From Gilvibacter sp. (GTDB lineage Bacteria; Bacteroidota; Bacteroidia; Flavobacteriales; Flavobacteriaceae): a stretch of 64,000 bases of DNA. Under the pieces are notes generated by a model, which saw nothing but the letters and a program-made list of their open reading frames with translations, had not been told where the DNA came from and ran no database searches. This document shows, piece by piece, positions 5,681-63,638 of the stretch. The translations under genes and the position numbers were made by a program. Position 1 is the first letter of the stretch. Each line of letters starts with the position of its first letter. The stretch spans positions 2,737-66,736 of the forward strand of contig NZ_CBFCWJ010000040.1 in the NCBI RefSeq assembly GCF_965601605.1, in the 5' to 3' direction.

Positions 5681-6649
5681 TTACTGTTTATCAAGGCGGA
5701 TTCGCGACGGAACGGTACCTACTCCGGTACTGCCGTCAAATCCTAAATAGCCCTCTACGAGCCACAATTCGAACACAGAATCCTCTAAAGGATCTAAAGG
5801 GGCGTTCTCACTATCAGGTCCCAAAAGGATATCGTCTGCCCGCTCACTACAATTTGCATTGAGCTTGCGCAGTTGGTTTTCCCAAAAGAAGGATTCATTA
5901 CAACCCACAGTAAAATAGAACACACGCGGACGGCCGTTAGTAGGTGATTCCGGCGGGCCGGGAAAACGGATCTCCCTCACGTTTTGATTGGCACCCGTAG
6001 TAATTTGTACTAAATGAGGCGGACCAAAAGTAGGTCCAAAAGGACCATCCACCACACTACTGTATCGGTAGGTTCCTGTGAATAACTCAGGCGCAATGGG
6101 CTCCACCAATGGAATTGCATACCTGTAGGGCGAACTAAAAAAGGTCTCAAAAGCAATGATACAAGAGGCGCCACTGCCTACCGTAAAGGTGCGTTCATCT
6201 TCTAAGCGAATCAATAGACGCAAAACAACTTGGTCCCCACAACTGGATGCGGACAGCGGTACTGACAAAGCAGTTAAAACCTCATTTAAACTGTAATCGA
6301 GATTAAATCGAGGTAATCCAACCGGCCCCGTTTCAATGTCTTCCTTTTTAATAACATCAAAAAGAACCTCGGTATCCGGAACATTCCCATTGTCCGAATC
6401 ACGATCTATATACTGCGCATAAACTTCAATCTCTCGCAGCAAGTCGCCTTCCTCAACGTCTTGTTGTTCCACAACAGCATTGAAACGACTCTCGGGATCG
6501 TTGATATTAAAATCAGCTTGGACAAAATCTACGGTGCGCAAAAAGGAACCATTGGTCACGCCTTCAAAAACGAGATCAATGGCTTTGTCATCATCGGAGC
6601 ATTGCACAAAAAGCAAACCGCCCACGATTAGTAATAGCAATTTTTTCAT
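5681..6649 (-). CDS. Putative outer-membrane lipoprotein, function unknown
   Basis: Lipoprotein signal MKKLLLLIVGGLLFVQ-C-SDDD; co-oriented with and 36 nt from the T9SS gene. Confidence 0.75.
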   Translation of the reverse strand: MKKLLLLIVGGLLFVQCSDDDKAIDLVFEGVTNGSFLRTVDFVQADFNINDPESRFNAVVEQQDVEEGDLLREIEVYAQYIDRDSDNGNVPDTEVLFDVIKKEDIETGPVGLPRFNLDYSLNEVLTALSVPLSASSCGDQVVLRLLIRLEDERTFTVGSGASCIIAFETFFSSPYRYAIPLVEPIAPELFTGTYRYSSVVDGPFGPTFGPPHLVQITTGANQNVREIRFPGPPESPTNGRPRVFYFTVGCNESFFWENQLRKLNANCSERADDILLGPDSENAPLDPLEDSVFELWLVEGYLGFDGSTGVGTVPSRIRLDKQ

Positions 6650-6796
6650 TGTTCATAGGTTGGTACTCGAAAATACCGCAGGATTGTGTTATTTTTGGTA
6701 AATCCGATAGACGTTTACTCTATTTACCCCTCTAATTTCAATCCAACAAGAGTTTTAAGCTTTTCTAAAAAAGTGCCCCTAACAGGGCGATTATTG

Positions 6797-6804
6797 TACC
6801 TTTG
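6797..6804 (+). promoter_or_regulatory. -7 promoter element (TACCTTTG) of the phosphosugar mutase operon
   Basis: Exact TAnnTTTG match 16 nt before ATG 6821. Confidence 0.65.
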
Positions 6805-6820
6805 TTAATAATTCATAGCA

Positions 6821-38706: not shown

Positions 38707-39435
38707 CTAAACGATCAATTTTTTAACGGCTTCTACATAGCCCCGACTCACCCGAACGCTGGCACCGCTCTTGACTGTGATGTCATAGGTTTTACCGTAT
38801 TTAGCTACTTCTTGAATGGCTTGAAGATTCACCAAAGAAGATCGGTGGACGCGCAAAAATAGCTTGGGATCCAATTTATCTGCCAAGGCACTGATTCCGT
38901 AATTGCTTACAAAACTACCCGCTGCGGTGTGCAACTTGGAATAATCACCATAGGCTTCAATCCATTCGATTTGAGCTACCTCAATAGTGATTAGTTTTTT
39001 GTTGGAGGATACCAAAACCCGCTCGGGATAATGGGCCGTATCCATAAGTAAAGTGTTAGTAAGTGGCGCCAAGGCTTGCTGCGGATCTGACTTGGTCAAA
39101 CGTTCCACTGCTACTCTAAAACGATCTTTGGTGTAAGGCTTCAATAAATAATCCACTGCGTGCACTTCAAAGGCCTTTAAGGCGTATTTATCATAAGCAG
39201 TAGAGAAAATAATCTGCGGCAGTTCCTCCAAGCGCGTAATCACTTCAAATCCTGTGAGCCCGGGCATTTGAATATCCAGAAACACTAAATCGGGTTTAAA
39301 GCGATTGATCTCTTTTACAGCATCAACGCCATTGTTAACCTCAGCTATTACAATGAGATCTGGGTAATCTTCTAAGTATTCGCGAATCAACGAACGCCCT
39401 GCCTGCTCGTCATCAACAATAATAACCTTCTGCAC
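38707..39435 (-). CDS. LytTR-family response regulator (system 1)
   Basis: Receiver IVDDE...FLDIQMP...DYLLKP; LytTR FLRVHRS. GTG start overlaps the kinase stop. Confidence 0.95.
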   Translation of the reverse strand: MQKVIIVDDEQAGRSLIREYLEDYPDLIVIAEVNNGVDAVKEINRFKPDLVFLDIQMPGLTGFEVITRLEELPQIIFSTAYDKYALKAFEVHAVDYLLKPYTKDRFRVAVERLTKSDPQQALAPLTNTLLMDTAHYPERVLVSSNKKLITIEVAQIEWIEAYGDYSKLHTAAGSFVSNYGISALADKLDPKLFLRVHRSSLVNLQAIQEVAKYGKTYDITVKSGASVRVSRGYVEAVKKLIV

Positions 39436-40514
39436 TAAATGACAAATTTTATAATGGCTCCTTGAGGTGTATTGTCAAAGATCTCTAATTGTGATTGATA
39501 CATCTTTTGCAAACGCAGATGCGTATTGGCCAATCCTATTCCTTTGGTAAACGCGGCTTCCTTGTCAGCAATGCCCACCCCAGTGTCGGCTACCTCAAAC
39601 ATGAGCTTCTCCTCTTTTTTAAAGATGCTGATACTGATGGAACCGCCTTCAATTATGCTGGAGAGGCCATGTTTAATGGAATTCTCTACCAGAGGTTGCA
39701 GAAGCATCGGCGGAATCTTTTCATCGTACAGAGACTGATCTACGTTAAAATTCAAAGACAGTCTATCTCCATAACGCGCTTTCTCCAAATCTAGATATTT
39801 GGTAACAAATTCCAACTCTTCTCCTAAAGTGACCAACTCTTCTTGTGATGCGCGCAGTTGATATCTGAACAAATCAGAAAGTTGCGCGATCATGGTACGT
39901 GTCTTTTCTTGACCTGGAGGTACTGAGGCGTTGATGGTATTGAATACGTTGTATAAGAAGTGTGGATTCAATTGGGCTTTGATCGCGGAGAGTTCGCTCT
40001 TTAAAGCCGCTTGACGCAATTCTCCTTCTAGTTTTAGTTTCTCCTGATTCTTTCTAAAATATTCATAGGCATGAAAAAATCCGAATTGGATCATATAAAA
40101 CAGTGCCGGAATATATACATCCCAAACTTCCGCACCTCCTTGCAAATGCCACATGCCCCAGGCTTCACTGAGCTCGTAATAGATAAACTTTGACGCAAAC
40201 ACAAAGATGGGAAGCGTGATAATATGTACCAGCAGGCGTTGATAGAGTCTCCAATCTTTGAGTCCTCTAAAAATCAGCAGCCAGACGGGAATCGTCAATA
40301 AAAAGAAAATGGTGTACTGCATCCCTCCGCGGCGAATAAAGGGCACCAATTGAAAAATAGCGTCTTCTGGATCGTTATAACCTGCGCGATTCACCCAAAG
40401 GGTAATGTGGTACATCAATGCAAAGAGCATATAAAGCCCAAAGGTGATCAAAATATCTTTGATCCGCACACTTGCTACGGTCCTGTCGTACCAGGCTGTT
40501 TTGGTGGTTTCCAT
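39435..40514 (-). CDS. LytS-type sensor histidine kinase (system 1)
   Basis: Four TM helices; LKSELSAIKAQLNPHFLYN; LQPLVENSIKHG; DTGVG; GIGLAN. Confidence 0.95.
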   Translation of the reverse strand: METTKTAWYDRTVASVRIKDILITFGLYMLFALMYHITLWVNRAGYNDPEDAIFQLVPFIRRGGMQYTIFFLLTIPVWLLIFRGLKDWRLYQRLLVHIITLPIFVFASKFIYYELSEAWGMWHLQGGAEVWDVYIPALFYMIQFGFFHAYEYFRKNQEKLKLEGELRQAALKSELSAIKAQLNPHFLYNVFNTINASVPPGQEKTRTMIAQLSDLFRYQLRASQEELVTLGEELEFVTKYLDLEKARYGDRLSLNFNVDQSLYDEKIPPMLLQPLVENSIKHGLSSIIEGGSISISIFKKEEKLMFEVADTGVGIADKEAAFTKGIGLANTHLRLQKMYQSQLEIFDNTPQGAIIKFVI

Positions 40515-40516
40515 GA

Positions 40517-42178
40517 TTAATTTTTAGCTGATGGCGTGTAGATCACGTTTTGCACACGACCATAATTTAGTGAAAAACCTTTTAGGGTATTGTCTGAATT
40601 GAACTGCGGAGTTAAAATATAGCCTCCATTGACCCTGATGGTATTTGCTCGGATTAACTCAGCCTCAAGTGCTCTGTCTTTTAGTTGAACTGTGAATTGA
40701 TTTTCTCCTAAGTAGCGCACCAGCATTTTAGAATCCAATTCCGCATTAGCGTAATCTCCAGAAAGCTTTTGTAGTTCTTCTGGGATGATCTCTAAAGGAG
40801 GCAACCACCCTGCTTTGCGCATAGGTATCTGCTGATGGTACAGTTCAAAGTCGAATTTACCCGCGCTGTTCTCACTGGGTACAAATGCGACTGCCAAACC
40901 AGAACCGTTGGTGTACTTATACACATTCCCTTTAAAGTGTTCCAAGGCAACGGGGTTGGCTCCTTTAATTTCTCTAAACAAAGTATCATTGCGCTTTACT
41001 ATGGCGACCTCGGTGCTTGATTCTAGCAAATAGGTACCTAAAATGGAACTTTCTTTGGGTTTGGCCCCTAGAGTCTCTGGCATGCTTGGTGAGGCGACTC
41101 CCTGTTCTTGAGGACCGTAAATGGTTTCTAAAACTTGTGTTGCCAGATAACTGGCGTCCACTATGCCGTTGTTCATTACAAACACAGACAATTGATCCTG
41201 TGGCAAACGCGCTACATGAGCTCCGTAAGCCCCAGTGGCTCCAGAATGATAAATCATAGGCTGACCGTTAAAATTGCCTTGTTCCAAGCCGTAACTGTAG
41301 CCCGTGGGTGAAAGATCCAAGGCTTGCTGGCTAGTAGCCTTCCAAGAGTTTTGATCTGCGAGCACTGCAGCCTGGATCTGCTTCTCATAATTGAGCATAT
41401 CGCCTAGAGAAGTGTAGAGAAAACCATCTCCATGCAAATCGGTGATCATTGGATAGATCTGCCAACGGCCATCTCCCCAATTGGCATAAGCTGTTGTTTT
41501 ATTAGGGATGACCTCCATATAATTGTCAGAAAATTGGGTGTGATTCAGTCCGATGGATTTGAACCAGTTTCTGGAATAATCGGCAAAGGATTCTCCCGTG
41601 ACTTTCGCGACAACAGCAGCCAGTACAATATATCCACTGTTGCTGTAGGTATAATCACTACCTGGTTTAAAATTGAGTGTTTGTTGCTTTTGTAGCATCT
41701 TTAAAACGGTCTTATTGCTTAAGCCCTCGCGCCTCCACCAAGGGTTTCGCTGTACCGCCATTAGATCACAATAATCTCTAATCCCGCTGGTATGTGTGAG
41801 AATCTGCTCTATAGTGATGGGATCTTTAATAGCCTTGTATAATTCAGGTAAATAGGTTCTTAGATCGTCCTGCAAATTCAGTTTACCTTGCAAACTAAGG
41901 TCTACAACCATAGCAGCAGTAAACTGTTTGGCTACTGAGGCAATATTAAAAACCGACTGCTCGTCTACAGGGATCTGATATTCCAAATTGGCGAAGCCTG
42001 CATAATGCTCAAAGACAACCTCTCCTTTATATACAACTCCAACAGCAACTCCAGGAGTGTCATCTCCGATCTGTTGATCTATTAGTGATTGTAAGGCTGC
42101 TTGGTCAATTTGTTGGGCATGGATTGCTCCTGTAACAGCTAAAAATAGGCTCAGTAAAAATTGTGTTCGTTTAGTCAT
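40517..42178 (-). CDS. Secreted serine hydrolase (beta-lactamase / D-aminopeptidase family)
   Basis: SVAK (SxxK), YSN, HSGATG motifs; signal peptide. Confidence 0.9.
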   Translation of the reverse strand: MTKRTQFLLSLFLAVTGAIHAQQIDQAALQSLIDQQIGDDTPGVAVGVVYKGEVVFEHYAGFANLEYQIPVDEQSVFNIASVAKQFTAAMVVDLSLQGKLNLQDDLRTYLPELYKAIKDPITIEQILTHTSGIRDYCDLMAVQRNPWWRREGLSNKTVLKMLQKQQTLNFKPGSDYTYSNSGYIVLAAVVAKVTGESFADYSRNWFKSIGLNHTQFSDNYMEVIPNKTTAYANWGDGRWQIYPMITDLHGDGFLYTSLGDMLNYEKQIQAAVLADQNSWKATSQQALDLSPTGYSYGLEQGNFNGQPMIYHSGATGAYGAHVARLPQDQLSVFVMNNGIVDASYLATQVLETIYGPQEQGVASPSMPETLGAKPKESSILGTYLLESSTEVAIVKRNDTLFREIKGANPVALEHFKGNVYKYTNGSGLAVAFVPSENSAGKFDFELYHQQIPMRKAGWLPPLEIIPEELQKLSGDYANAELDSKMLVRYLGENQFTVQLKDRALEAELIRANTIRVNGGYILTPQFNSDNTLKGFSLNYGRVQNVIYTPSAKN

Positions 42179-42194
42179 GATGATGAATTTTACT

Positions 42195-42339
42195 CAAATG
42201 TAAGGAGTTGAATTTGATTGAACTAGCTCCATCAGACGAATGGGCCTATAGCCCGATGAATGGTCCGGGTACGTTCGTCGGCTTATAGGCCCACTGGTCG
42301 GTTTGTACTTTTATATGTCTTAAAACCATCACATATTTG
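42195..42339. promoter_or_regulatory. Divergent promoter pair with LytTR-type boxes in a 65-bp imperfect palindrome
   Basis: -7 boxes TACATTTG (42195-42202, -) and CATATTTG (42332-42339, +); paired 9-bp boxes with a 20-bp period on each strand. Confidence 0.65.
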
Positions 42340-42363
42340 CCTTGTCAATCAAACATCAGCATT

Positions 42364-44784
42364 ATGAACAATTCAATCAAAAAACGAATTTCACTACTTC
42401 TCATCCTCTTGAGTAGTGGTTTGCTCGAGGGCCAAAATCTAGAGCTTAGCGGGCAGTTAGTAGATCCAAACCAACAAGCCGTTGCCTTTGCCACTACTTA
42501 CCTCTACAAGGCGCAAGACAGCACTTTGGTAAAGGCGACCATCACCGATGCGGATGGCTTCTTTTTAATTAAGGAGTTGCCAAGTGACCGGTATTATATT
42601 GCGTTAAACAGTCTAGGTTTTGCTCCCTACCAATCCGAAGCATTCAACTTAGACCATAACTTAAAACTACCGACTATCCGTTTAGAGGAAGCCGCAGAAG
42701 CCTTGGATGAGGTTACCATTATTGCCGAAAAGCCGATCGTAGAGGTTTTAGCGGACAAGACCGTATTTAATGTGGATAAGACCATCAATGCCACAGGAAG
42801 TACCGGTTTTGAATTACTCCGTAAAGCACCGGGAGTACTCATTGACAATAACAACAGCATTATTGTAGAAGGAAAAGCCGGCGTGCAGATCTATATTGAC
42901 GGAAGACCTTCTGTGCTGGCCGGCCAAGATTTGGTGAATTATTTGGAAACCTTGCAATCCACAGACATTGAATCTATTGAGATCATCACTCAACCCTCCT
43001 CTAAGTACGAGGCTGCAGGAAACGCCGGTATCATTAACATCATTCTAAAGCGCAACAAAAGCTTAGGTACAAACGGTTCTTTGACCTTGGGATATATTCA
43101 AGGAAAGTTCCCACGGGTGAACAGCTCTGTAAATTTGAACAACCGCGGTAAAAAAACCAATCTCTACGGCACCTACAGCAATCGTTTTGGAGACGGTTTT
43201 GGTTTTATTGATCTGTTTAGACGTCAGAACGGAACCACCTTTGATCAGCGCAGTACAACCGTTTTAGACATCAACAATCACAACATCAAAACAGGTTTTG
43301 ACTATTACATCAATGACAAACATACTCTGGGCGTACTTTTCAATGCCAACTTTAGTAATGTGATCAACAGCACCGACAGTCGTACGCCAATCATTCCAGG
43401 AGGACAAACCATGCCGGTAGAAGTGTTGATCGCTCAGAGCAACTCAGACAATGTTTCTTCAAACTTGAACGGTAACCTCAACTACAAATACAAAGACACC
43501 ATTGGTCGTGAATTCACAGTAGATCTTAACTACGGAAATTTTTACAGCGATCGCAACAACTTTCAACCTAACTTCTACCTAAACGGAGCAGAAGAAGATA
43601 CGCTGAGCGAATCCATTGCGCGTTTTATCACGCCGATTCAGATCGATATTCTAGCGGGACAGGTAGATTACGAACAGCCGCTTATGGGCGGAAAAATCGC
43701 TTCGGGAATTCGCTATTCCTATGTCAAGACCAACAATGTGTTTGACTTCTTTGATGTGGTGGACGGACAAGAGATCCTCAACCTGGAACAAACCAACACC
43801 TTTGATTATACAGAACAGATCAATGCCGGCTATTTGAATTACAATATCCGTTGGGACAAATGGAATTTACAGTTGGGCCTACGCGTAGAACAAACCATCT
43901 CTGAGGGAGACTTGACCTCTGCCCAAGACAACGCCAATGATCTGGTGGAACGCAACTATACCGATTGGTTCCCCAGTGGTGGATTGACTTATCAACTAAA
44001 TCGAAAGAACAGCTTTGCCTTGACTTACAGCCGTAGGATCCAACGCCCGACCTATCAAAGTTTGAATCCTTTTCAATTTAAGATTGACGAGCTGACCTTT
44101 AGACAAGGAAATCCCTTCTTGCAGCCGCAGTACACCAACAACATCAAACTATCACACACCTATAATTACCGTTTGACTACTTCTTTTACCTATACCTACA
44201 TCTCTGACTTTTTTGCTCAGGTTACCGAGGCATTGGGAGAAGATCAAAACTTCATCAATCAGCGTAATGTGGCCAACCAACGGGTTTATAATTTTGGAAT
44301 CTCCTACCCTACGCGTATTAACGATTGGTGGAGCATCTATTTTAGTGTCAATGCCTTTAGAAGTGAATATGAAGCCACCTCAGAAGATTTCTTGGCGGTG
44401 AGTCAAAACACCTTGAGTTTCTACGGACAGAACACCTTTAAGTTACCTGCGGATTTCACCTTTGAGGTCTCAGGTTGGTTTCAATCGCCTTCTATTTGGG
44501 GAGGAACCTACCAGACCAATAGCTTAGGTTCTTTAGATGTAGCGCTGCAAAAAAAGTTCTTCAATGACAAACTTACCCTTAGAATTGCGGGCAGCGATAT
44601 CTTATTTACCTCGCCATGGTCTGGGGTTACTGAGTTCGGAGATCTGATCATAGACGGTAGCGGAGGTTCAGACAGCAGACAGTTTAGACTCAGTTTGAAC
44701 TACAACTTCGGTTCTGACGAGGTCAAAAAGGCGCGTAAAAGAAAAACAGCCATTGAAGACGAATCCGGCCGTATCGAAAATTAA
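42364..44784 (+). CDS. TonB-dependent receptor / outer-membrane beta-barrel with N-terminal carboxypeptidase-regulatory-like domain
   Basis: Plug LLRKAPGV...IESIEIITQPSSKYEAAG.AGIINI; FSRRIQRP-like YSRRIQRP; LSLNYNFG C-terminus. Start at 42364, since 42337 lies in the -7 box. Confidence 0.9.
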   Translation: MNNSIKKRISLLLILLSSGLLEGQNLELSGQLVDPNQQAVAFATTYLYKAQDSTLVKATITDADGFFLIKELPSDRYYIALNSLGFAPYQSEAFNLDHNLKLPTIRLEEAAEALDEVTIIAEKPIVEVLADKTVFNVDKTINATGSTGFELLRKAPGVLIDNNNSIIVEGKAGVQIYIDGRPSVLAGQDLVNYLETLQSTDIESIEIITQPSSKYEAAGNAGIINIILKRNKSLGTNGSLTLGYIQGKFPRVNSSVNLNNRGKKTNLYGTYSNRFGDGFGFIDLFRRQNGTTFDQRSTTVLDINNHNIKTGFDYYINDKHTLGVLFNANFSNVINSTDSRTPIIPGGQTMPVEVLIAQSNSDNVSSNLNGNLNYKYKDTIGREFTVDLNYGNFYSDRNNFQPNFYLNGAEEDTLSESIARFITPIQIDILAGQVDYEQPLMGGKIASGIRYSYVKTNNVFDFFDVVDGQEILNLEQTNTFDYTEQINAGYLNYNIRWDKWNLQLGLRVEQTISEGDLTSAQDNANDLVERNYTDWFPSGGLTYQLNRKNSFALTYSRRIQRPTYQSLNPFQFKIDELTFRQGNPFLQPQYTNNIKLSHTYNYRLTTSFTYTYISDFFAQVTEALGEDQNFINQRNVANQRVYNFGISYPTRINDWWSIYFSVNAFRSEYEATSEDFLAVSQNTLSFYGQNTFKLPADFTFEVSGWFQSPSIWGGTYQTNSLGSLDVALQKKFFNDKLTLRIAGSDILFTSPWSGVTEFGDLIIDGSGGSDSRQFRLSLNYNFGSDEVKKARKRKTAIEDESGRIEN

Positions 44785-54071: not shown

Positions 54072-57000
54072 TTATTGCTTCACAACACGTTTAACCGTTT
54101 GTCCTTGATCTGTGATGATCTGAACAAAGTATAGTCCTGAAGCCACATCGTTTAGGTTGAACTGGATTTCAGCTCCAACACCTTGTACGTTTAGTCTCTT
54201 AATCAAACGTCCGTTTACGTCATAAAGGTTCACGTCTTCAACAATCGCAGTACTGCGGTTGCGAAGGGTCAAATCTCCTTGACTTGGGTTCGGATATAGT
54301 GTGATCACATTGTCAATTCCAAATTCGTCTACACTCAATACTCCTTCTACAGTTAGGGTAAACGTACAGTCGCTAGAGTTTCCTGCAGCATCTGTAGCAG
54401 TAAGTGTTACGGTATAATCTCCAGGTCCTAACTCAGCACCTACCGCAGGATCTTGCGTAATTGTTGGATCCTCTGGACAGTTATCTGAGAAAGTAGCAGA
54501 TAATGAGTAATCTGGAACTACATAGGGTAGTCCGTCTTCAATTACATATACTTCATCTTCAGGGCAAGTGATCTCAGGAGCAATGTCCTCAGCAATTACT
54601 TGTGTAAGTGTACGTGGCGCAACACAACCAGCAAAGCCAATTCCGATGCTCTCGTTAGGCTCCCCGTAAGAAGCTTCCAAACAAGTGTTTGGCCAGTCTA
54701 ATGCGCTGTCTGAATCTCCGTTACGTTGGAAAGAGTCGTTACAGTTTGCTGTTAGCGCAGCACCTGCACCTATCCAGTCAAGATCGGCAGCAGTAATATT
54801 GAATCCAGCTACATTGATATCGAAAGTTGCAAGCGTTGCACTGTCTACGTTCCAGAACGCAGAGTCTACTACGTTTCCAGAAGGATCTAGAATAAGGATC
54901 CATCCTGAATCAGGAGCATCGTTATCCCACCATAGGTTACTACCCCAGTAGTCCGCGTCACCTGCAGTATCGTTCCAAGCAATGGCTTCATCTTCATCCA
55001 TAACACCTAAAGTCTGAACCACTGGGTTCACGGTGTTGATGTTAGAGAATGGCTCTTCACTAACTACTACTCGGTATCCGGTGTAATCAGTTTGTACTCC
55101 TACGTTTTGGATCTCAAAACGGTCTGGAGTTTCTAGAGTTACTTCAGAAATTACCAATTTAGACAAGAAGTCATCAGCAGTCTCTTCAGCCCATAGATCA
55201 ACAGAACCTGTTGGAGTGAATGTGTAGTCAGTACCTTCAAATAAGAAAGCTCCACCTACCTCAGCATCAAACCAACGAATGTTGTTAGCAGGATCTGAAA
55301 GTGTTGCAGTTACAGTCACCTCATCTCCGATACATACGTCAGTAACACCAGTTGTCAATGGAGAATCCGGAGTCGCCAATACTTCGATATCATCTGTTGC
55401 TACAGAAGCCGAAGCACAAGCTGAATCTCCAATTTCATAAGTGATTGTGTGAACTCCAACACCAGCCACAACTGGGTCAAACGTATAGGTAAGTCCGTCT
55501 CCGTTGTCAGTAACACCAGGACCGCTGTATACACCACCAATTGGGCTACCAGCACCTGTTACTTCAAAAGCCTCTTCAGTAGAACATACGTCTGAAGGAG
55601 CAGTAAAGTTAGCTTCTCCAGAAGGAGTGTCGAAGTTCTCAGTTCCATCAGCAACACTGAAAGAAGAACCTTGAATGGCGTTGATACCAAGACCACGCTT
55701 AGCAAACGCATCCCAAATGATACATTCGTTAGCACCTCCGTAGATCGCAACGTCTGCCGCTAGAATAGCGTCACGACCGTCTACGAATCCAGGGCTACAT
55801 GGTTGAAGCTTCATCGCTTCCGTAACAAGGGCGATTGCCATTACGTTACCAGCATCTAAAGAAGCATCTCCAGTAAAGTTGTAAATATCAGCATCCCATC
55901 CGTTAGCGTCAATCAAGCCCCAGGTCATTTCCCAAAGCATCATGGCCCATACAGATCCTACTCCGTGAGGAACAGCAGACGACTGAATAAAGTCATATGT
56001 CTGTGGGTTAATGTTCATATCAGTACTGTATGGGAAAGGACGAATCCCAGCTCCATCAGGACCTTCATTAAATAGGTAAGTACCTACTCCGCGTGGATCT
56101 ACACCAGCGTCTCCTGGCTCCATAGTCATTACAAGACCGTACCAGTCAGACCATCCTTCTCCCATCTGCTCAGAGTTACCTAAACATCCAGCAGCTCCTG
56201 GTCCACCAGTCAAACGGTTAGAAATACCATGTCCGTATTCGTGGATAATTACAAGGTTGTCATAGTCACCGTCACGAGATCCACAAGTATACATCTGCAT
56301 ACGTGGGTTTCCTCCGTCTGGTGGAGTTCCGAAGTTTGCGTTACAAGTTCCAGAACCGTCTTGGGCTTCAGAATCTACAGAGTCTCCTCCGATTCCACCA
56401 CCACCGTAGTTATTTTCTTGGAAGTTACCTCCAGCTTCATCAAAACCATACTGATACAATACATCGTGAATGATGTTAGTCCAGTAGAAAAGGTTTGTTA
56501 CTGCCGCAGCTTCGTATTGGTTTGCAGCAGAGTAAGCGATATCCCACTCGAATCCTACACCACCGAAGAACAGGTCAGATCCACCGTCAGGCTGGAATCC
56601 TACATTGTCTCCATCTTCATAAGCGTTAGCATTGTTACCACGAGTTGTAGTAAACTCGGCTCCAGCAACACCGTTGGTATCGTGCCATCCAAATGGAGAA
56701 GCCGTTGGGTCTGCAGGATTTACTTCAAAAGTACGGTCTCCGAAGAATGGACTTTCTAGCGGTAAAGCGAAAACTTCATAACACTCAACGCATCCACCAG
56801 CATCAGCAGCAGACTTGTCTACAGCAGGCTGAAGATTTAGGTTGAAGTTGGCTCCGTGATCGTGTCCACTGTGATCGTGATCTGCATGGTCGTGTTCAAA
56901 TTCACAGCTTACCATCCAGTTTACGCGGTCAATGATTTGACCAGTGCTAGCATCTACACGAACGGACCACCAGTTTTGCTGGCCGATCTCTAAAATAGAA

Positions 57001-57539
57001 AGGTCCCAAGCAAGAGTAATGTCTCCTTCTTCTGATTTCTGGTAAGTAAGCGCTACTGGAATCTCTAAAAGCGAGATACCACCGTCGCTCATTAGCATTT
57101 TTGGAGATCCTTCAGACAGATCCTCAACGATAGAGAATGATTTTGTCGGCGTGTAACCCAATGCATTAGCTGCTGCAGCGATAGCTCCATCAGCTGAAAG
57201 GCCTGGACTGGTCATTCCACTCGACTTGTCAATCGATTGTGAAACAAAACCGTTGTTCATTTTCAATAGTGTTCCATCTGGCATGATGTGCGCAGAGGAT
57301 TCTGAACCATAAACAGGAATTCCATTTACAAGTTGTCGGTAGTAAACGTGAGTAATTCCACTCACCTTACTAACGTTTTGGTTTGTAATCTCGAACTCAA
57401 TGTCTTGAGACGTCAGTCCGTGATTTTCTTTTTGTTGGCTTAAGTAGTTAGAGATGGTTGTTGTTGCATCCTGAGCGAATGATTGCAGCGTGAACAAACT
57501 GCATAACCCAAGGAGTACAACCAGGGTACATTTTTTCAT
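54072..57539 (-). CDS. M36 (fungalysin) metallopeptidase with FTP propeptide, Ig-like and HYR domains and T9SS type A sorting domain
   Basis: HEYGHGISNRL and EGWSD zinc motifs; DIAPEITCP...FSDNC HYR; LYPNPS...GLYFVQI CTD. Confidence 0.92.
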   Translation of the reverse strand: MKKCTLVVLLGLCSLFTLQSFAQDATTTISNYLSQQKENHGLTSQDIEFEITNQNVSKVSGITHVYYRQLVNGIPVYGSESSAHIMPDGTLLKMNNGFVSQSIDKSSGMTSPGLSADGAIAAAANALGYTPTKSFSIVEDLSEGSPKMLMSDGGISLLEIPVALTYQKSEEGDITLAWDLSILEIGQQNWWSVRVDASTGQIIDRVNWMVSCEFEHDHADHDHSGHDHGANFNLNLQPAVDKSAADAGGCVECYEVFALPLESPFFGDRTFEVNPADPTASPFGWHDTNGVAGAEFTTTRGNNANAYEDGDNVGFQPDGGSDLFFGGVGFEWDIAYSAANQYEAAAVTNLFYWTNIIHDVLYQYGFDEAGGNFQENNYGGGGIGGDSVDSEAQDGSGTCNANFGTPPDGGNPRMQMYTCGSRDGDYDNLVIIHEYGHGISNRLTGGPGAAGCLGNSEQMGEGWSDWYGLVMTMEPGDAGVDPRGVGTYLFNEGPDGAGIRPFPYSTDMNINPQTYDFIQSSAVPHGVGSVWAMMLWEMTWGLIDANGWDADIYNFTGDASLDAGNVMAIALVTEAMKLQPCSPGFVDGRDAILAADVAIYGGANECIIWDAFAKRGLGINAIQGSSFSVADGTENFDTPSGEANFTAPSDVCSTEEAFEVTGAGSPIGGVYSGPGVTDNGDGLTYTFDPVVAGVGVHTITYEIGDSACASASVATDDIEVLATPDSPLTTGVTDVCIGDEVTVTATLSDPANNIRWFDAEVGGAFLFEGTDYTFTPTGSVDLWAEETADDFLSKLVISEVTLETPDRFEIQNVGVQTDYTGYRVVVSEEPFSNINTVNPVVQTLGVMDEDEAIAWNDTAGDADYWGSNLWWDNDAPDSGWILILDPSGNVVDSAFWNVDSATLATFDINVAGFNITAADLDWIGAGAALTANCNDSFQRNGDSDSALDWPNTCLEASYGEPNESIGIGFAGCVAPRTLTQVIAEDIAPEITCPEDEVYVIEDGLPYVVPDYSLSATFSDNCPEDPTITQDPAVGAELGPGDYTVTLTATDAAGNSSDCTFTLTVEGVLSVDEFGIDNVITLYPNPSQGDLTLRNRSTAIVEDVNLYDVNGRLIKRLNVQGVGAEIQFNLNDVASGLYFVQIITDQGQTVKRVVKQ

Positions 57540-57699: not shown

Positions 57700-58455
57700 T
57701 TACTCCAACCAAAGTTTGAAGTCTTTAACTCGTTCGCGTGCCACGATAACGTCCTGATCCTTATAGCTCTCTAACTTAATTTGCAAGCGGGAGTTTGTAT
57801 AAGAAATGATGTCTTTTATCGCATTGATGTTGATGAAGAACTTTCTGTTGATACGGAAAAAAGTTGCGGGTTCTAACTCGTCTTCCAACTGTTCTAAAGT
57901 AGTATCCAGCAGGTAGTCTCGCCCTTCAAAAGTATGGGCATAGGTGCCTTTATTCTCACTGTAGAAGCATTCGATCTCATCTACCGGAATCATGCGTAAA
58001 TGCTGTCCAATCTTAACGGTAAAGCGCTTTTTGTACTCCCGCTCTACCGGGTTGGTCAATAACTTTTTGATATCCTCAAAGTTGAGTTGCACATTGGAAG
58101 TTTGCTTTTGCTGATTCTTGTATTGGTTTATGGCCGAGATCAGCTCGTCTTCATCAATTGGCTTGAGCAAGTAATCAATACTGTTCAATTTAAAAGCTTG
58201 CAAGGCGTATTCATCATAAGCCGTGGTGAAGATAATTGCACTGGTAATATCGATTTTATCAAAAATCTCAAAGGAGAGTCCGTCACTCAATTGGATGTCT
58301 AAAAAGATGACTTCTGGATGCGAATTCTCCGAAAACCAGGCTATGGATTCTTCAACAGAATGCAATAAGGTCAAAACCTCAACATCTTGCGCTTCTAGCA
58401 TGCGTTTTAAACGGCGTGCTGACGGCTTCTCGTCTTCAATGATTAATACTTGCAT
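57700..58455 (-). CDS. LytTR-family response regulator (system 2)
   Basis: IIEDE...FLDIQLSDG...DYLLKP; FFRINRK; VARERV. Confidence 0.95.
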   Translation of the reverse strand: MQVLIIEDEKPSARRLKRMLEAQDVEVLTLLHSVEESIAWFSENSHPEVIFLDIQLSDGLSFEIFDKIDITSAIIFTTAYDEYALQAFKLNSIDYLLKPIDEDELISAINQYKNQQKQTSNVQLNFEDIKKLLTNPVEREYKKRFTVKIGQHLRMIPVDEIECFYSENKGTYAHTFEGRDYLLDTTLEQLEDELEPATFFRINRKFFININAIKDIISYTNSRLQIKLESYKDQDVIVARERVKDFKLWLE

Positions 58456-58472
58456 AATAGATTTACGGTAGG

Positions 58473-58799
58473 TTAGTAATTTAAGTGCTGTTCTTCTTCC
58501 TCTTCTTCTCGCATGAATTCACGGATCTTGCGCTCTTCCCAGTTTTTAATGAAGCCGAGTTTATCACTAAAGACCCACAGTCCGTGAAAGAACAGACCAA
58601 TTCCCCAGAAAAGCGGTGTGGTAAAGATAGACCAGTGCGGGATCTCAAAACCGATGTTCCCTTCGTTAAAAACCAATACTCTAATTAAAATGATGGCCGT
58701 ATTCACAATTAGGTAAACCACTAGGTGGTTGTAGAACCCTTTTATGTTTTCTACCTTTTTCTTGGCGCGACCGTATTTAGACTCTGTATATTTTTCCAT
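58473..58799 (-). CDS. 2TM-domain protein
   Basis: RAKKKVENIKGFYNHL...WGIGLFFH...WEERKIREFM. Confidence 0.9.
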   Translation of the reverse strand: MEKYTESKYGRAKKKVENIKGFYNHLVVYLIVNTAIILIRVLVFNEGNIGFEIPHWSIFTTPLFWGIGLFFHGLWVFSDKLGFIKNWEERKIREFMREEEEEEQHLNY

Positions 58800-58819
58800 G
58801 ATTGATAAATGTTGTTTGC

Positions 58820-59203
58820 TTATTCCCAGCGTTGGCTGGAATTGTAATTCTTATCCGTATCCCAGTTGATCTTATCATCCCAGGACTCCTCCTCTCGTTG
58901 ACCTCCATTTTCATGGAACTCTTCCTCACGCATGAATTCGCGGATCTTGCGTTCTTCCCAATCGCGGTTGAACACCGGGCTTAATCTAAAGGCTTTAATG
59001 GCGTGGAAAACCAACCCGATTCCCCATCCAAAGGCAGCCCACAAAAACCAGACGTAGCTAAATCCGTTGGTCGTGTAATTGATCCAAGCCAAAAATGGAA
59101 TGATGATCAAGTACCACATCAGGCTGGTATAGAACTTTTTAAGCTCTTCCACGCGTTCTTTAGCGCGGATGTATTTGTTTTGATTTTTAGGACTGTTACT
59201 CAT
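58820..59203 (-). CDS. 2TM-domain protein
   Basis: RAKERVEELKKFYTSL...WGIGLVFH...WEERKIREFM. Confidence 0.9.
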   Translation of the reverse strand: MSNSPKNQNKYIRAKERVEELKKFYTSLMWYLIIIPFLAWINYTTNGFSYVWFLWAAFGWGIGLVFHAIKAFRLSPVFNRDWEERKIREFMREEEFHENGGQREEESWDDKINWDTDKNYNSSQRWE

Positions 59204-59222
59204 GATTTTTAAATTTGATACT

Positions 59223-59293
59223 CAAAGATATTTAAGGACTCGGGCTGCGACAATTCTTTAGGACCGAACGGTCGTTTTTTACTGCTGAATTGT
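59223..59293 (-). promoter_or_regulatory. LytTR-type promoter before the 2TM genes
   Basis: ACAATTCAG-N12-ACCGTTCGG-N33-TATCTTTG. Confidence 0.65.
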
Positions 59294-59294
59294 A

Positions 59295-60629
59295 TTAGAG
59301 ATCATCTTTGTCCATAAACTCACGGATCTTGCGCTCTTCCCAGTTCTTACCCAGAAGCGGATTGTAACTAAATACTTCCATGGCATGGCCTACGACTCCC
59401 AGTCCCCATCCGCCAATTGGAAACAAGGCCCAAGGAAAATCTGTAGACATTAAGTTCAAATAAATAAAGATGGGCACAAAGATCAAATAGATGGCAAAAT
59501 GCACATAAAATCCTTTGATCTTGTCTACGCGCTCTTGGGCACGCAGGTAACGTTTTTCACTGATATATTCTTGTTGTGTATTCATTGTAGTTGCTTTTTG
59601 TTTAGTGAGCAGTGGTATGGCCACTACAAACTCTTTGTTGACTTCTGAGATCAAAACGGGTCGATCTGTCAATAGTTGATAACGTTGTCTGATATTTTGC
59701 AATCCTACTCCACTACTCTTTTTGACTACCTGTTTGGGTTGAATATTGTTTTTAACCACCAAGGCGCCGTCTTGTTCATAAATAGTGATCACCAAGCGTT
59801 TACTGGGTGTCACCATATTGTGTTTCACCGCATTCTCCAACAGCAGCTGCAAACTCAAAGGCACTACTTTGGCATCTGGGTTTTTTAGGTTTTGCGGCGG
59901 ATTGTACTCAATCGCTTCTTCAAAACGCATCTTGAGTAGCGAAATGTAAAGCTGTGCAAAATCCAGTTCTTCCTGAAGCGTTACTAGGTCTTTGTTCTTC
60001 TGCTCTAAAACATATCGGTATACCTTTGAGAGCGAAGTGGTGAACTTGGTCGCCGCTTTGGGATTCTCTTCAATCAGGCTGGTGAGCACGTTCAAACTGT
60101 TGAACAAAAAGTGCGGATCCAGCTGATTTTTCAAAGCGTCAAAACTCGCTGCTGCAGATCCTGCGATCTTCTTTTGCTCCTTGACCTGGGTATCACGGGT
60201 AAACTTGTAATAGTAGAAGGTGTAATAAATGGTGAGCATCACCACGGTGATCATCAGGGCCACCATATAGTACTCTGGCTTTTCAGAGGCTAAAAAGTCC
60301 CTGATGGCCTTTCCTTCTAAAATTGTGTGAATGAACAATCGGATCACCGCAATGGCCACAATGGTTGCTCCAATGCTGGAAAGGATCGACTGGATCAGGT
60401 TTTTCGCTTTAAAGAACTGCTTTCCGTATTTATTGACAAAGTGACTGATGATGTACCCGTTGAGCACAAACAAGACCACAGAATAAATTTGATTGATGGT
60501 GAATTCTGTCAACAGCTTGCCAAAGGATTCTATGCGCCATCCCAACATATAGCTGATGATCATCAGCACGATGAAGATGATTATTCCGAATCCAAAACCG
60601 CGGATTGCTTCTTTAAAGAATCGAGTCAT
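59295..60629 (-). CDS. LytS-type histidine kinase with C-terminal 2TM domain (system 2)
   Basis: LKNQLDPHFLFNSLN, LLENAVKHN, GVGLQNI, then RAQERVDKIKGFY...WEERKIREFM. Confidence 0.93.
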   Translation of the reverse strand: MTRFFKEAIRGFGFGIIIFIVLMIISYMLGWRIESFGKLLTEFTINQIYSVVLFVLNGYIISHFVNKYGKQFFKAKNLIQSILSSIGATIVAIAVIRLFIHTILEGKAIRDFLASEKPEYYMVALMITVVMLTIYYTFYYYKFTRDTQVKEQKKIAGSAAASFDALKNQLDPHFLFNSLNVLTSLIEENPKAATKFTTSLSKVYRYVLEQKNKDLVTLQEELDFAQLYISLLKMRFEEAIEYNPPQNLKNPDAKVVPLSLQLLLENAVKHNMVTPSKRLVITIYEQDGALVVKNNIQPKQVVKKSSGVGLQNIRQRYQLLTDRPVLISEVNKEFVVAIPLLTKQKATTMNTQQEYISEKRYLRAQERVDKIKGFYVHFAIYLIFVPIFIYLNLMSTDFPWALFPIGGWGLGVVGHAMEVFSYNPLLGKNWEERKIREFMDKDDL

Positions 60630-60631
60630 AA

Positions 60632-61264
60632 TTAGTTATTACAAGTTCTGTCAATTACTTCAAGGCCGTAGTCTTTTCCGTGCTGTGGATAGAACTCTTC
60701 ACTAGCCTGAAAGTTGTCATATAAAAGTATGGCTTTTTGCAAATCTTCACAGAATTCTGCGGGATCTTGTCCAAAAAAGCGCGCTGCGCCCATATCCCAT
60801 TCCAGTTTCCCCATGGCAACACGAGGATTGTTCGGATCGATTTTAGCTGCCTTCTGATAAATGGCTGCTACTTTGGGTGCATACTGCATGCCGTACTTTT
60901 CACCATCAAAAGCTACCCAAGAGGTATACCATTGCGCCTCTACTACCAGCAATTCTGGATTGTTCGGGCTTACTCCTTTAGCTAGATTTAAATATTCCTG
61001 AGCTTTGTTGAGCATGGCGGTTCTCTTGTCCAAATCCATTTCTTCATAGCTCTCAATGGTAATGATCAAGGCTACGTAATAAGCGGGTAACCATTGGTCA
61101 GTTTCTACATTAGATATGCGTTCAAAAATGTTTGAAGCTTCTAATGGTTTGTCTTCTCCCCAAGTGGTCAGTGCTTTTTGCATACCCTTTTGGTAGGGAG
61201 TTTGTGCTGTGACACCAAAGGCCACAGAGATCATTAAAGCGAAAGTAAATACGAGTGTTTGCAT
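60632..61264 (-). CDS. Secreted TPR-like helical protein
   Basis: Signal peptide; FERISNVE...WLPAYY, AAKIDPNNPR motifs. Confidence 0.75.
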   Translation of the reverse strand: MQTLVFTFALMISVAFGVTAQTPYQKGMQKALTTWGEDKPLEASNIFERISNVETDQWLPAYYVALIITIESYEEMDLDKRTAMLNKAQEYLNLAKGVSPNNPELLVVEAQWYTSWVAFDGEKYGMQYAPKVAAIYQKAAKIDPNNPRVAMGKLEWDMGAARFFGQDPAEFCEDLQKAILLYDNFQASEEFYPQHGKDYGLEVIDRTCNN

Positions 61265-61286
61265 GACTGTTGTGATTAATATGTCG

Positions 61287-61357
61287 TAAATATCTGGTCT
61301 TGTTAGTGCATTTCACACTTAAGTAGACCCAACTGTTGTTTTTTGCTGATGAAGTGT
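61287..61357 (-). promoter_or_regulatory. Weaker LytTR-type promoter before the TPR-like gene
   Basis: ACACTTCAT-N12-ACAGTTGGG-N33-GATATTTA (degenerate -7). Confidence 0.45.
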
Positions 61358-61366
61358 AGTTCTGTC

Positions 61367-63535
61367 TTAGAGGTTGTCCAATTGGTTGTCTGTTCCGTCA
61401 TCGGAGATGGTCCAAAAGAAGCCGACAAAGAAGAACTGATCTGCTGCCGGACGCAGGGCTCGGCGATCAAATTGACCGTTTGCATTGGGCGTGTTGGCGT
61501 ACTGATACCCGTTCACATTTTTAAAGCCCAGCATATTGTTTACCGAGAAGTACAAGATCTTTTGTTGGTCAATGAGATAAGCCCAATTAAAACTCAGACT
61601 GTGAAAGTCCTTGGTCTTTTCTTGTAAAAATCCAGGCCTGTTCAGATCCGTATAAGTTCTTCCACTACTGTATTGATAGCTCCAACCCAACTGACTCTTT
61701 AGCTTATCTACCCAAAGTTTGGTCACCACAGAGAGGTTATGTGTATTGGCAAAATTAGGTGTGGCTGCTGTTGGAAAGTTTTGATACTGTCGCTCGGTAT
61801 CCAAATAGGAATAACTCACCCAATAGTCCAGATTCTTAATGGACGTATTATCCCTCCAAAAAAGATCAAAGCCTTGCGCGTAGCCGTCTCCAGCGTTTCC
61901 AAATTGACTTTCAAAACCGGCCATTTCCGTGTCAAAAGTGACCAGATCATTATAGTCTTTGCGGTACAGCTCTGCTCTGAAGATCTTTCCTTCATGGCTG
62001 AACTGATAGTTTAAGATATAGTGTTGTGTCATCTGCGGATCCAATCCTGGGGAAAACTTTAAAAAGTCATTCCCAACCTGCTGATAAAAGTTTCCGTAAG
62101 CCAAAGACAGTTGACTGTGTTTCCCTGTTTTATAGGCTGATGAAACTCGCGGTGCAATACTAAAACGGTCATTGGCTTGGGTGTACTCCCCACGCAGTCC
62201 GACCTTTACAGCAAACTTTTTGGAGAAAATGATATCGCTCTCCGCAAAGGCTGCACTGATGTTATTATTGAAGCCGTAATCCACATTAAAGTCTGGATTG
62301 TTGAAATTCTCATCAAAATCGGTCCAAAACTGTTCGGCTCCAAAAGCCAACTTAAACCTACTGTTGAATCGCTTTCTCACCTTTGCTTTTGCGTGAACGG
62401 AATATTCCGTGTTGTCTATATTGTTGTCAATGATGGTCACATCGGTATTGGCAACGGTAAAACTTCCGCCCAGATCCAACTTCCAACCGTTGTCAAAGCG
62501 TTTGTAATAAGAGCTGTTGGTGTACCAGTTTCTGTTCTTTAAACGAAAGAACAAGCCTTCCTCAAGGTTAATATCCTCCTGAGTCAAGCTAAAGTTTGAA
62601 CTGTCAAAAGCCGTGTAGACCTTTAAGAGTCCGTCTCCTATCTTGTGACGATATACCGCCTCCCCTGCAAAGGTTTCAAAAGGCTCATCCCAATCATTTC
62701 GATCTGGATAAACCACTAAATAAGGTGCTAGATTGATGTAAGAAGCATTAAAACTCACCGAACTCTTATCCCAAAGTTTGGTGTGTCCCAAAGAACCTCC
62801 CACGGTCATAATGGCTATGTCTGTTTTATTCTGGACAGGCTCATCAATGGTATTGAGCAAAAGCACTGAAGACAAGCCCTGCCCGAATTCCGCAGAATAT
62901 CCGCCGGTAGAAAAAGTGATCCCATCAAAGAGAAATGGCGAATAGCGTCCGCGAGTTGGAATGTTATTGGTTGTAGGCGTGTAGGGCGTAAAAACACGGA
63001 TCCCATCTATAAAGATTTGTGTTTCTCCAGCATCACCACCACGAACAAAAAGACGGCCGTCTTCAGAAACCGTGGTGGTTCCTGGTAAAGTTTGCAGCGC
63101 TCCGACAAAATCACCCAAGGCGCTTGCTGTGGTAACCACGTCCAAAGGTTTTAAAACGGAGACCTTGCTATTGTCTCCGGCTTCAAAGGTTCCCGCAGAC
63201 AGCACCACAGTTTCCAATGCATTAAGGTCTTCTCGTAGTTTAAGTGTAAGACCATTCATTGCCGTGATCTCTGCAGCATATTCCAAGGTTTCAAAACCAA
63301 TGTACGAGATCGAAAGTGTTTGTACTCCTGTTTCTTCGGATTCAAAACTGAAGCTTCCATCGGCGGCAGTGGATGCCCCGTCATAGGTTCCTACTAAAAA
63401 GACATTGGCTCCCTCTACCGGGTTTCCGCTAGGATCAGTAACTGAACCGTTTACTGTAGTTTGCCCAAAAGCCTGGATTAAAAACCCTAAACAGGAGATT
63501 AAAAATAAGACGAGTGATTTGGTGAATTTTCGCAT
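61367..63535 (-). CDS. TonB-dependent receptor with N-terminal carboxypeptidase-regulatory-like domain
   Basis: Plug LQTLPGT...GRLFVRGG...FSTGGYSAEFGQGLSSV; C-terminal FFFVGFFWTIS. Confidence 0.92.
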   Translation of the reverse strand: MRKFTKSLVLFLISCLGFLIQAFGQTTVNGSVTDPSGNPVEGANVFLVGTYDGASTAADGSFSFESEETGVQTLSISYIGFETLEYAAEITAMNGLTLKLREDLNALETVVLSAGTFEAGDNSKVSVLKPLDVVTTASALGDFVGALQTLPGTTTVSEDGRLFVRGGDAGETQIFIDGIRVFTPYTPTTNNIPTRGRYSPFLFDGITFSTGGYSAEFGQGLSSVLLLNTIDEPVQNKTDIAIMTVGGSLGHTKLWDKSSVSFNASYINLAPYLVVYPDRNDWDEPFETFAGEAVYRHKIGDGLLKVYTAFDSSNFSLTQEDINLEEGLFFRLKNRNWYTNSSYYKRFDNGWKLDLGGSFTVANTDVTIIDNNIDNTEYSVHAKAKVRKRFNSRFKLAFGAEQFWTDFDENFNNPDFNVDYGFNNNISAAFAESDIIFSKKFAVKVGLRGEYTQANDRFSIAPRVSSAYKTGKHSQLSLAYGNFYQQVGNDFLKFSPGLDPQMTQHYILNYQFSHEGKIFRAELYRKDYNDLVTFDTEMAGFESQFGNAGDGYAQGFDLFWRDNTSIKNLDYWVSYSYLDTERQYQNFPTAATPNFANTHNLSVVTKLWVDKLKSQLGWSYQYSSGRTYTDLNRPGFLQEKTKDFHSLSFNWAYLIDQQKILYFSVNNMLGFKNVNGYQYANTPNANGQFDRRALRPAADQFFFVGFFWTISDDGTDNQLDNL

Positions 63536-63567
63536 GAGCGCTGATTTTCATTTTTTGATTGATGGTT

Positions 63568-63638
63568 CAAAGATGCAGCTGCGAAATCAGTCCGACTAAA
63601 AAATCCGACTGAACTGTAAAAAAGGAAGGCTCAACTGA
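63568..63638 (-). promoter_or_regulatory. LytTR-type promoter of the TonB-receptor operon
   Basis: TCAGTTGAG-N12-ACAGTTCAG-N33-CATCTTTG; both boxes fit the AgrA-type consensus. Confidence 0.7.

Follow-up and report, generated by a model that had tools for sequence, protein, structure and literature searches.

What does a bacterium control, and in response to which signal, when a small membrane hairpin is fused to the end of its sensor kinase and encoded again, as free copies, next to it? This question is raised by six genes and their promoters (57700-63638) in a 64,000-nucleotide stretch of DNA, hereafter the window, which lies on contig C40 in the 3.06-Mb draft genome of a marine flavobacterium whose nearest named relative is a Gilvibacter metagenome-assembled genome (95% protein identity). 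Judged from comparative data, the six genes may represent the version of a hus-type uptake locus that occurs in Flavobacteriaceae; the locus would be controlled by a LytS/LytTR two-component system and form part of a closed, positively autoregulated and substrate-induced regulon; we regard this reading as moderately probable.

All six open reading frames (ORFs) are found on the minus strand, co-oriented and at the coordinates that a preliminary description of this DNA had reported. They encode a TonB-dependent receptor of 722 amino acids (aa) with CarboxypepD_reg-like, Plug and barrel domains (61367-63535), a secreted all-helical protein of 210 aa for which Pfam gives no family (60632-61264), a histidine kinase of 444 aa with a PF06580 domain and a C-terminal two-transmembrane-helix (2TM) domain (PF13239; 59295-60629), two free 2TM proteins, and a response regulator of 251 aa with receiver and LytTR domains (57700-58455; PF00072, E 9e-15; PF04397, E 3e-21). 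The first free 2TM protein (58820-59203, 127 aa; PF13239, E 7e-29) is of the a-type, the paralogue class closest to the kinase-fused copy, and the second (58473-58799, 108 aa; E 2.4e-24) of the b- or “last”-type. The kinase start codon overlaps the stop of the preceding gene (TAATTATG), and the remaining gene junctions in the set measure 17-20 nucleotides (nt). The receptor falls short of the SusC/RagA model, scoring 52.7 bits against TIGR04056 (cut-off 368), a match confined to the N-terminal CarboxypepD_reg part. A reading of the locus as a defence system was dropped when the PADLOC models gave no relevant match.

What, then, do the two cargo genes at the head of the locus transport? The secreted protein had been labelled “TPR-like” (tetratricopeptide repeat), a label that gives way to another family. 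When a profile of 28 family sequences was compared with the PDB, the sole convincing match was 6BQS, the Porphyromonas gingivalis haemophore HusA (PG_2227; E 3.1e-13), with positions 40-207 of 208 in the profile aligned to residues 28-192 of the chain. The AlphaFold2 (AF2) model of the protein (predicted local distance difference test, pLDDT, 91) led Foldseek to the same PDB entry as its best match, with template-modelling scores of 0.76/0.79 over 193 columns. Sequence and fold thus agree that the 210-aa protein is a homologue of the HusA family. The HusA fragment taken from the profile/6BQS alignment has homologues in 67 of 401 Bacteroidia genomes, and the reciprocal search with it finds the orthologue that adjoins the kinase gene in genome G018; a search for related loci with the HusA-like profile returned Flavobacteriaceae only. 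HusA is known to bind haem, with a preference for metal-free porphyrins, and HusB is its TonB receptor (PMC6173696, PMC11681262). In a set of 40 loci with a HusA-like gene from Bacteroidia outside the Flavobacteriaceae (the distant loci), the HusA-like gene is immediately preceded by a homologue of our receptor gene in about 34 (hidden Markov model E 1e-150 to 1e-254), and in these the HusA-like product is up to 44% identical to 6BQS. The receptor is therefore, by transitivity through these loci, a probable HusB-like partner of the HusA-like protein. Taken as a whole, the module appears to be a hus-type locus under LytS/LytTR control.

How this control might operate is suggested by three pairs of 9-bp direct repeats with a 12-bp spacer. 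These were already reported in the preliminary description, each exactly 33 nt from a -7 element, and read identically on the minus strand. Box 1, TCAGTTGAG-N12-ACAGTTCAG (63609-63638), is the predicted operator of the receptor promoter and is followed after 33 nt by CATCTTTG (63568-63575), itself 32 nt before the ATG. Box 2, ACACTTCAT-N12-ACAGTTGGG (61328-61357), is predicted to serve the HusA-like/kinase unit, with GATATTTA (61287-61294) at the same distance and 22 nt before the ATG. Box 3, ACAATTCAG-N12-ACCGTTCGG (59264-59293), starts 2 nt past the kinase stop codon as the predicted operator of the 2TM-2TM-regulator unit; its -7 element, TATCTTTG (59223-59230), again follows after 33 nt and lies 19 nt before the ATG. 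All three downstream elements are variations on TAnnTTTG, the -7 element of Bacteroidota. The likeness to AgrA/LytTR-type operators, proposed earlier from the layout, is borne out: AgrA recognizes ACAGTTAAG-like 9-bp direct repeats, 12-13 bp apart (PMC11039898), and the half-site found here, ACA(G/A)TTC(A/G)G, is near the AgrA sequence.

A degenerate pattern covering the three sites has three matches in the window against 0.02 expected, a circular figure in that the pattern was derived from the same sites. This circularity, together with the shortness and degeneracy of the half-sites, could suggest that the repeats resemble each other by chance or belong to some generic repeated element of no regulatory meaning. 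The non-circular tests consist of an out-of-sample fourth site and of orthologous loci. When the genome was scanned with a crude matrix built from the six half-sites of the window, the top rank went to a site on another contig (C21:7204-7233), ACAGTTCAG-N12-ACAGTTCGG, which stands exactly 33 nt from a further copy of CATCTTTG, with the ATG of a DUF2141 gene 27 nt beyond. A second match of this crude scan (C5:14195), inside an ORF of 1025 aa, disappeared with a 75-column matrix that was built from sites of other genera only, our own sites being excluded. With the latter matrix, exactly four sites on the two strands of the 3.06-Mb genome score above 14 bits: the DUF2141 promoter with 48.1 bits and boxes 2, 3 and 1 with 41.0, 35.7 and 31.3 bits. 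The predicted regulon would therefore be closed and consist of the receptor, the HusA-like protein with the kinase, the 2TM-2TM-regulator unit and the DUF2141 protein.

The DUF2141 protein is a secreted product of 141 aa (PF09912, E 2e-27) that gave no match in the PDB; we know of no function for this family. Its box (region C21:7204-7727) starts at the stop of an upstream ORF of 282 aa (6356-7204). The true start of the gene is probably the ATG at 7302, since the longer ORF from the ATG at 7245 would begin upstream of the predicted transcription start site.

Are the boxes conserved beyond this genome? A full-length orthologue of the kinase-2TM fusion is present in about 49 of 61 Flavobacteriaceae genera, and regulator orthologues are 58-78% identical across genera. 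Two sets of loci were compared, 40 orthologous 11-kb segments of different genera and 80 further named Flavobacteriaceae loci, 120 together. In the 40 segments, the constant core is formed by the kinase-2TM gene, between one and five genes for free 2TM proteins, and the gene of the regulator; upstream of it, the helical protein is encoded in 26, and the receptor in about 14 within reach of the segments. In several genera the DUF2141 gene lies within the operon, which explains the unlinked fourth promoter in the present genome. In the first set (41 loci in this count) 67 boxes face forward with respect to gene orientation and two in reverse, one of the latter preceding a DUF2141 gene that is itself reversed. 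The 80 named loci hold 150 forward and six reverse boxes, so that both sets together give 217:8. Cultured strains that carry the locus include Altibacter lentus JLT2010, Maribacter thermophilus HT7-2, Algibacter mikhailovii KCTC 12710 and Ulvibacter antarcticus DSM 23424. Nearly always, the box is found 90-105 nt 5' of an ATG with which the receptor gene, the DUF2141/helical-protein/kinase unit or the leading free 2TM gene starts; the recurrence in orthologous loci, the absence of which had been named beforehand as grounds for abandoning the idea, thus holds at a fixed distance in the 120 loci. Alignment of 59 sites gives tt-ACA(A/G)TTCAT-C(c/a)ttaAAAAttt-ACA(G/A)TTC(G/A)G-TA. Four columns that were not used in site selection are nevertheless invariant (59/59): T41, at +11 after the box in a TTTT run that forms a -33-like element, and A65, T68 and T69, at +35, +38 and +39 within the (G/C)AtaTTTG -7 motif.

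Two variations on this arrangement were observed. In Maribacter-type loci (L079, L112, L123, L134), six to nine free 2TM genes are present and a second box follows the first free copy, part of the array apparently having its own promoter. In Pontimicrobium and Algibacter (L081:4355-5086, L125:7080-7808, L131:7084-7809), the receptor gene is separated from the box that serves the HusA-like gene by a gene for a proline-rich TonB-like protein of about 242 aa.

The distant loci show whether the box belongs to the receptor or to the regulator. A LytS-type kinase with a LytTR regulator is encoded in 12 of the 40, a multi-TM protein of about 195 aa with a winged helix-turn-helix (wHTH) protein of about 96 aa (PF13601) in 16, and no recognised regulator in about 12. 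A 9-12-9 box with its -7 element, 76-98 nt 5' of the receptor ATG and scoring at least 16, is found in 11 of the 12 loci with a LytTR regulator; the twelfth holds a diverged copy that is visible by eye. No box was found upstream of the receptor in any of 24 distant loci without this regulator, where the maximum score is 11.9. The box tracks the LytTR regulator, not the receptor. In two loci (L193:4554, L195:4385) a LytTR-type regulator gene stands upstream of the receptor gene with neither a kinase nor a recognisable box. In two loci of the wHTH type (L166, around 5230-5260, and L168, around 5545-5575), a different, palindromic motif (TTGGTTTATAAAATAAACTA / TTGGTTTATATTATAAACTA) lies upstream of the receptor gene and may be the wHTH operator.

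Against chance or a generic repeat thus stand the exact number of four genome sites obtained with an independent matrix, the position kept in the 120 Flavobacteriaceae loci and in the 12 regulator-bearing loci of other families, the strand bias and the distribution of 11/12 against 0/24. The comparative data effectively refute this explanation, which we consider extremely improbable. In silico, the evidence supports the boxes as a conserved operator that keeps a constant distance from a -33/-7 promoter.

What would binding at these operators do? The positive-feedback circuit of the preliminary description stands as far as conserved boxes do precede the receptor gene, the sensor unit and the 2TM/regulator unit, a placement most naturally read as that of an autoregulated closed regulon. 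Since the boxes lie upstream of the -33 element, activation is preferred to repression. A positive-feedback regulon is strongly supported by comparative evidence. Gene content, homologies, operator geometry with its conservation and its co-occurrence with the regulator are directly observed, and regulator binding to the boxes, activation, the ligand and an assembly of 2TM proteins with the kinase are what we infer. In the proposed circuit, a phosphorylated dimer of the regulator would bind the 9-12-9 repeat, with the consensus ACA[A/G]TTCAT-N12-ACA[G/A]TTC[G/A]G. The repeat would occupy roughly -76 to -47, its end being 9 nt from the T-rich -33 element and 33 nt from the TAnnTTTG -7 element. 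The bound regulator would then recruit RNA polymerase with the housekeeping sigma factor to otherwise weak promoters, and the four targets, including the unlinked DUF2141 gene, would close a positive-feedback loop. The kinase would probably sense within the membrane, with the fused and free 2TM hairpins as partner subunits. The likeliest stimulus would be the hydrophobic cargo of HusA/HusB, a porphyrin-like molecule, in which case uptake would be substrate-induced.

The build of the kinase is relevant to this proposal. Its PF06580 domain (E 2.8e-25) contains H173 (DPHFLFNSLN), the N-box LLLENAVKHN (262-271; E265-N271) and GVGL (G307-L310), all invariant in 35 orthologues. In the AF2 model, the N-terminal part forms four TM helices joined by short loops, and a disordered linker (344-358) leads to the hairpin (2TM, about 353-442). 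According to this model the kinase would have an intramembrane-sensing build with no periplasmic domain, and a search for the 5TM-Lyt sensor domain gave no match even at E up to 10. Kinase and regulator both carry the domains that define the LytS/LytTR class of two-component systems. The regulator scores far below the equivalog cut-offs of BtsR (107.9 bits against 246) and of LytR (101.6 against 375).

Among known systems, AgrA/AgrC, LytSR, BtsSR and YpdAB also combine a PF06580 kinase with a receiver-LytTR regulator and a direct-repeat operator by the promoter, and are likewise autoregulated, as is predicted here. In contrast to systems of the AgrA/LytSR type, our locus has a Bacteroidota -33/-7 promoter, a kinase that is anchored in the membrane once more (2TM) past its ATPase domain, and TonB-dependent uptake as its output, and the kinase also differs from LytS, BtsS and YpdA in lacking the 5TM-Lyt domain. 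The streptococcal LytTR regulatory systems with membrane inhibitors, to which the locus had been likened, offer a weak analogy. HdrRM and BrsRM do resemble it in pairing a LytTR regulator with small membrane proteins and in autoregulation through direct repeats, but their regulators have neither receiver nor kinase, control being exerted by a membrane inhibitor; the present regulator has a receiver domain and a cognate kinase. Intramembrane-sensing kinases with small membrane accessory proteins are known in SaeS with SaeP/SaeQ, LiaS with LiaF and BceS with BceAB. As in these systems, the kinase here lacks an extracytoplasmic domain and is encoded with small membrane proteins that are predicted to be co-regulated with it. 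Unlike theirs, the accessory proteins are paralogues of the kinase-fused domain and come in arrays of one to nine; no homology of the 2TM proteins to SaeP/SaeQ, LiaF or the BceAB accessory proteins was found.

The same build allows a different view of the stimulus, in which HusA/HusB and the DUF2141 protein are outputs only and the kinase, with its 2TM proteins, senses the state of the membrane or envelope, such as stress, lipid perturbation or photo-oxidative damage. Short loops and four plus two TM helices are typical of intramembrane sensing, the bacterium probably makes its own haem, and DUF2141 is encountered in lipid and pigment contexts: it adjoins crtG (PMC5989583) and forms one of the domains in LptZ (PMC13692018). 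However, about 28 of the 40 distant HusA/HusB pairs come with a dedicated regulator (LytS/LytTR in 12, wHTH in 16), which is typical of substrate-specific control, and the regulon comprises uptake proteins and signalling proteins and nothing else. We therefore judge envelope sensing to be unlikely.

What do the 2TM proteins contribute? The three domains of the window score 93.2, 100.2 and 85.6 bits against PF13239 (gathering cut-off 24.8), and each does end in WEERKIREFM as previously noticed. Over 273 domains, the conserved signature opens with a basic helix at the N-terminus (KYxRAKxRVxxxKxFY) and continues with TM1, a loop of variable sequence and TM2 with WGIGL, followed by WEERKIxEFM; no residues other than A14, W82 and E83 are invariant. 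Conservation is highest in the juxtamembrane helices and not in the TM or periplasmic parts. Since the 2TM domain of the kinase follows the cytoplasmic ATPase domain, both conserved helices must presumably be cytoplasmic. A comparison of the family profile with the PDB gave nothing significant (best E 7.9).

Every kinase-fused copy is accompanied by at least one free copy, in 40 of 40 loci and in 64 of 64 in a second count; each locus has between one and nine free copies. A maximum-likelihood tree unites the kinase-fused and first free copies in one clade (support 100/96), while “last” copies of different genera form separate clades of their own. To place the two free proteins of the window, one may turn to the 95%-identical Gilvibacter locus L071, where the orthologue of the 58820-59203 protein falls in the kinase-fused clade and that of the 58473-58799 protein clusters with last-position copies of other genera. 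The 2TM paralogues are therefore old and have kept their position in the array. The age of the paralogues and the constant company of fused and free copies would fit hetero-oligomeric partner subunits better than dosage amplification, and the earlier proposal of free 2TM proteins binding or titrating the tail of the kinase is plausible, being in keeping with this strict co-occurrence.

Alternatively, the free 2TM proteins might be effectors and not partners of the kinase, acting as carriers or buffers of the cargo in the inner membrane or in a holin-like manner as in LytSR-LrgAB. What lends weight to this is that 10 of the 16 distant wHTH loci have a genuine PF13239 protein (E 1e-13) after HusB/HusA with no kinase present, that the number of free copies varies from one to nine, and that some 2TM arrays have their own internal boxes. 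An effector role is quite unlikely, however, given that fused copies always come with free ones, a conservation that peaks in the cytoplasmic helices and not in the TM or periplasmic parts, and the fact that in the wHTH loci the 2TM gene again adjoins regulatory genes.

From the wHTH-type loci it would appear that the 2TM domain can work without a kinase. Conversely, 11 of the 12 hus-linked distant kinases lack the 2TM tail, and their loci also lack a free 2TM gene; the single distant locus with a tailed kinase, L181, belongs to the Flavobacteriales and has three free 2TM genes. Tentatively, the 2TM hairpin may thus be a previously unrecognised membrane signalling module for the HusA/HusB cargo, which would make transcription respond when a porphyrin-like molecule arrives in the inner membrane, and this by two independent architectures: a LytS-type kinase with fused and associated copies in Flavobacteriales, and a membrane protein with a wHTH protein in other Bacteroidia. 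Haem, a biosynthetic intermediate or breakdown products of marine algal chlorophyll could be the molecule in question.

The second architecture recalls the Hus system of P. gingivalis itself, which comprises HusA (PG2227), HusB (PG2226), the regulator HusC and the membrane protein HusD, in the published gene order husD-husC-husB-husA (PMC11681262). Two distant loci (L171, L187) with a membrane protein and a wHTH gene upstream of the receptor gene resemble this arrangement, by gene order and product names only. The locus in the window shares with it the HusA homologue and the order of receptor and HusA genes, whereas the kinase, the LytTR regulator and the 2TM proteins replace the pair of membrane protein and wHTH regulator.

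Returning to the substrate-induced hus-type circuit, several observations weigh against it. The residues that line the porphyrin groove of HusA, F80, L123, V124, W130 and Y164 (PMC6173696), are partly kept in our protein: F80 corresponds to Y73 and remains aromatic, L123/V124 are replaced by A/F, and W130 and Y164 by Gly, while other invariant aromatics (W116, Y124, W156, F164) lie near the groove positions. The ligand may thus differ from that of HusA, and a porphyrin-like nature of it is a working hypothesis. The host, a free-living marine bacterium unlike P. gingivalis, encodes ferrochelatase and glutamyl-tRNA reductase and probably makes its own haem, so that the auxotrophy rationale of P. 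gingivalis does not apply. The histidine of WGIGLxxH is not conserved, which argues against simple haem ligation; as a general feature, ligation by this residue was rejected, the position being Q or K in many a-type copies. The monomer model of the kinase has a predicted template-modelling score (pTM) of 0.43 and carries no information on 2TM partners or on packing of the tail. Finally, other LytTR regulators of the genome could in principle use the boxes.

In the literature searched, no publication was found that describes this HusA/HusB-LytTR-2TM arrangement, that treats HusA together with LytTR or that deals with the PF13239 domain; matches to “2TM domain-containing” concerned the unrelated glycine-zipper SlyB family. 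A coevolution paper on Flavobacterium johnsoniae reports a mutated LytTR regulator of unknown role, which could not be linked to the present locus. Beyond the preliminary description, the present analysis adds the likely HusA/HusB identity, the predicted fourth (DUF2141) promoter and the apparent association of 2TM proteins with hus-type loci under two types of regulators. If the circuit is true, PF13239 would gain its first function and first testable ligand class, and DUF2141, otherwise of no known function, membership in a regulon. The Hus system, so far studied only in an oral pathogen, would be extended to free-living marine Flavobacteriaceae. There, the presence of haem-synthesis enzymes points to roles beyond the relief of auxotrophy, such as iron scavenging, the use of algal tetrapyrroles or protection against phototoxic porphyrins. 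Moreover, a LytTR regulator of the Bacteroidota would have its regulon predicted in full, with operator, -33/-7 spacing and four targets, of which the literature searched held no example, and nature would offer a kinase one of whose own domains also exists as free paralogues. Should the 2TM hairpin be a signalling module as well, marine Flavobacteriaceae would possess a substrate-induced, tetrapyrrole-sensing regulon.

Two neighbouring regions of the window may be mentioned. Directly downstream of the regulator gene, a secreted protein of 1155 aa (54072-57539, minus strand) contains a HEYGHG zinc-protease motif and a C-terminal tail that resembles a type IX secretion sorting domain. The gap of 160 nt between the two genes holds neither a box nor an obvious terminator, and the matrix scan places the gene outside the regulon. 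Further away, another LytS-type kinase, which lacks a 2TM tail (39435-40514, minus), is encoded next to a beta-lactamase-like serine hydrolase (40517-42178, minus), and a divergent TonB receptor of the CarboxypepD_reg type (about 42365-44784, plus) faces this pair (39435-44784). Between the divergent units lies a GC-rich palindrome (42235-42299) with GA(C/T)GAATGG-type repeats, which are unlike the 9-12-9 boxes and gave no match with the matrices; the palindrome probably serves a different LytTR system as its operator.

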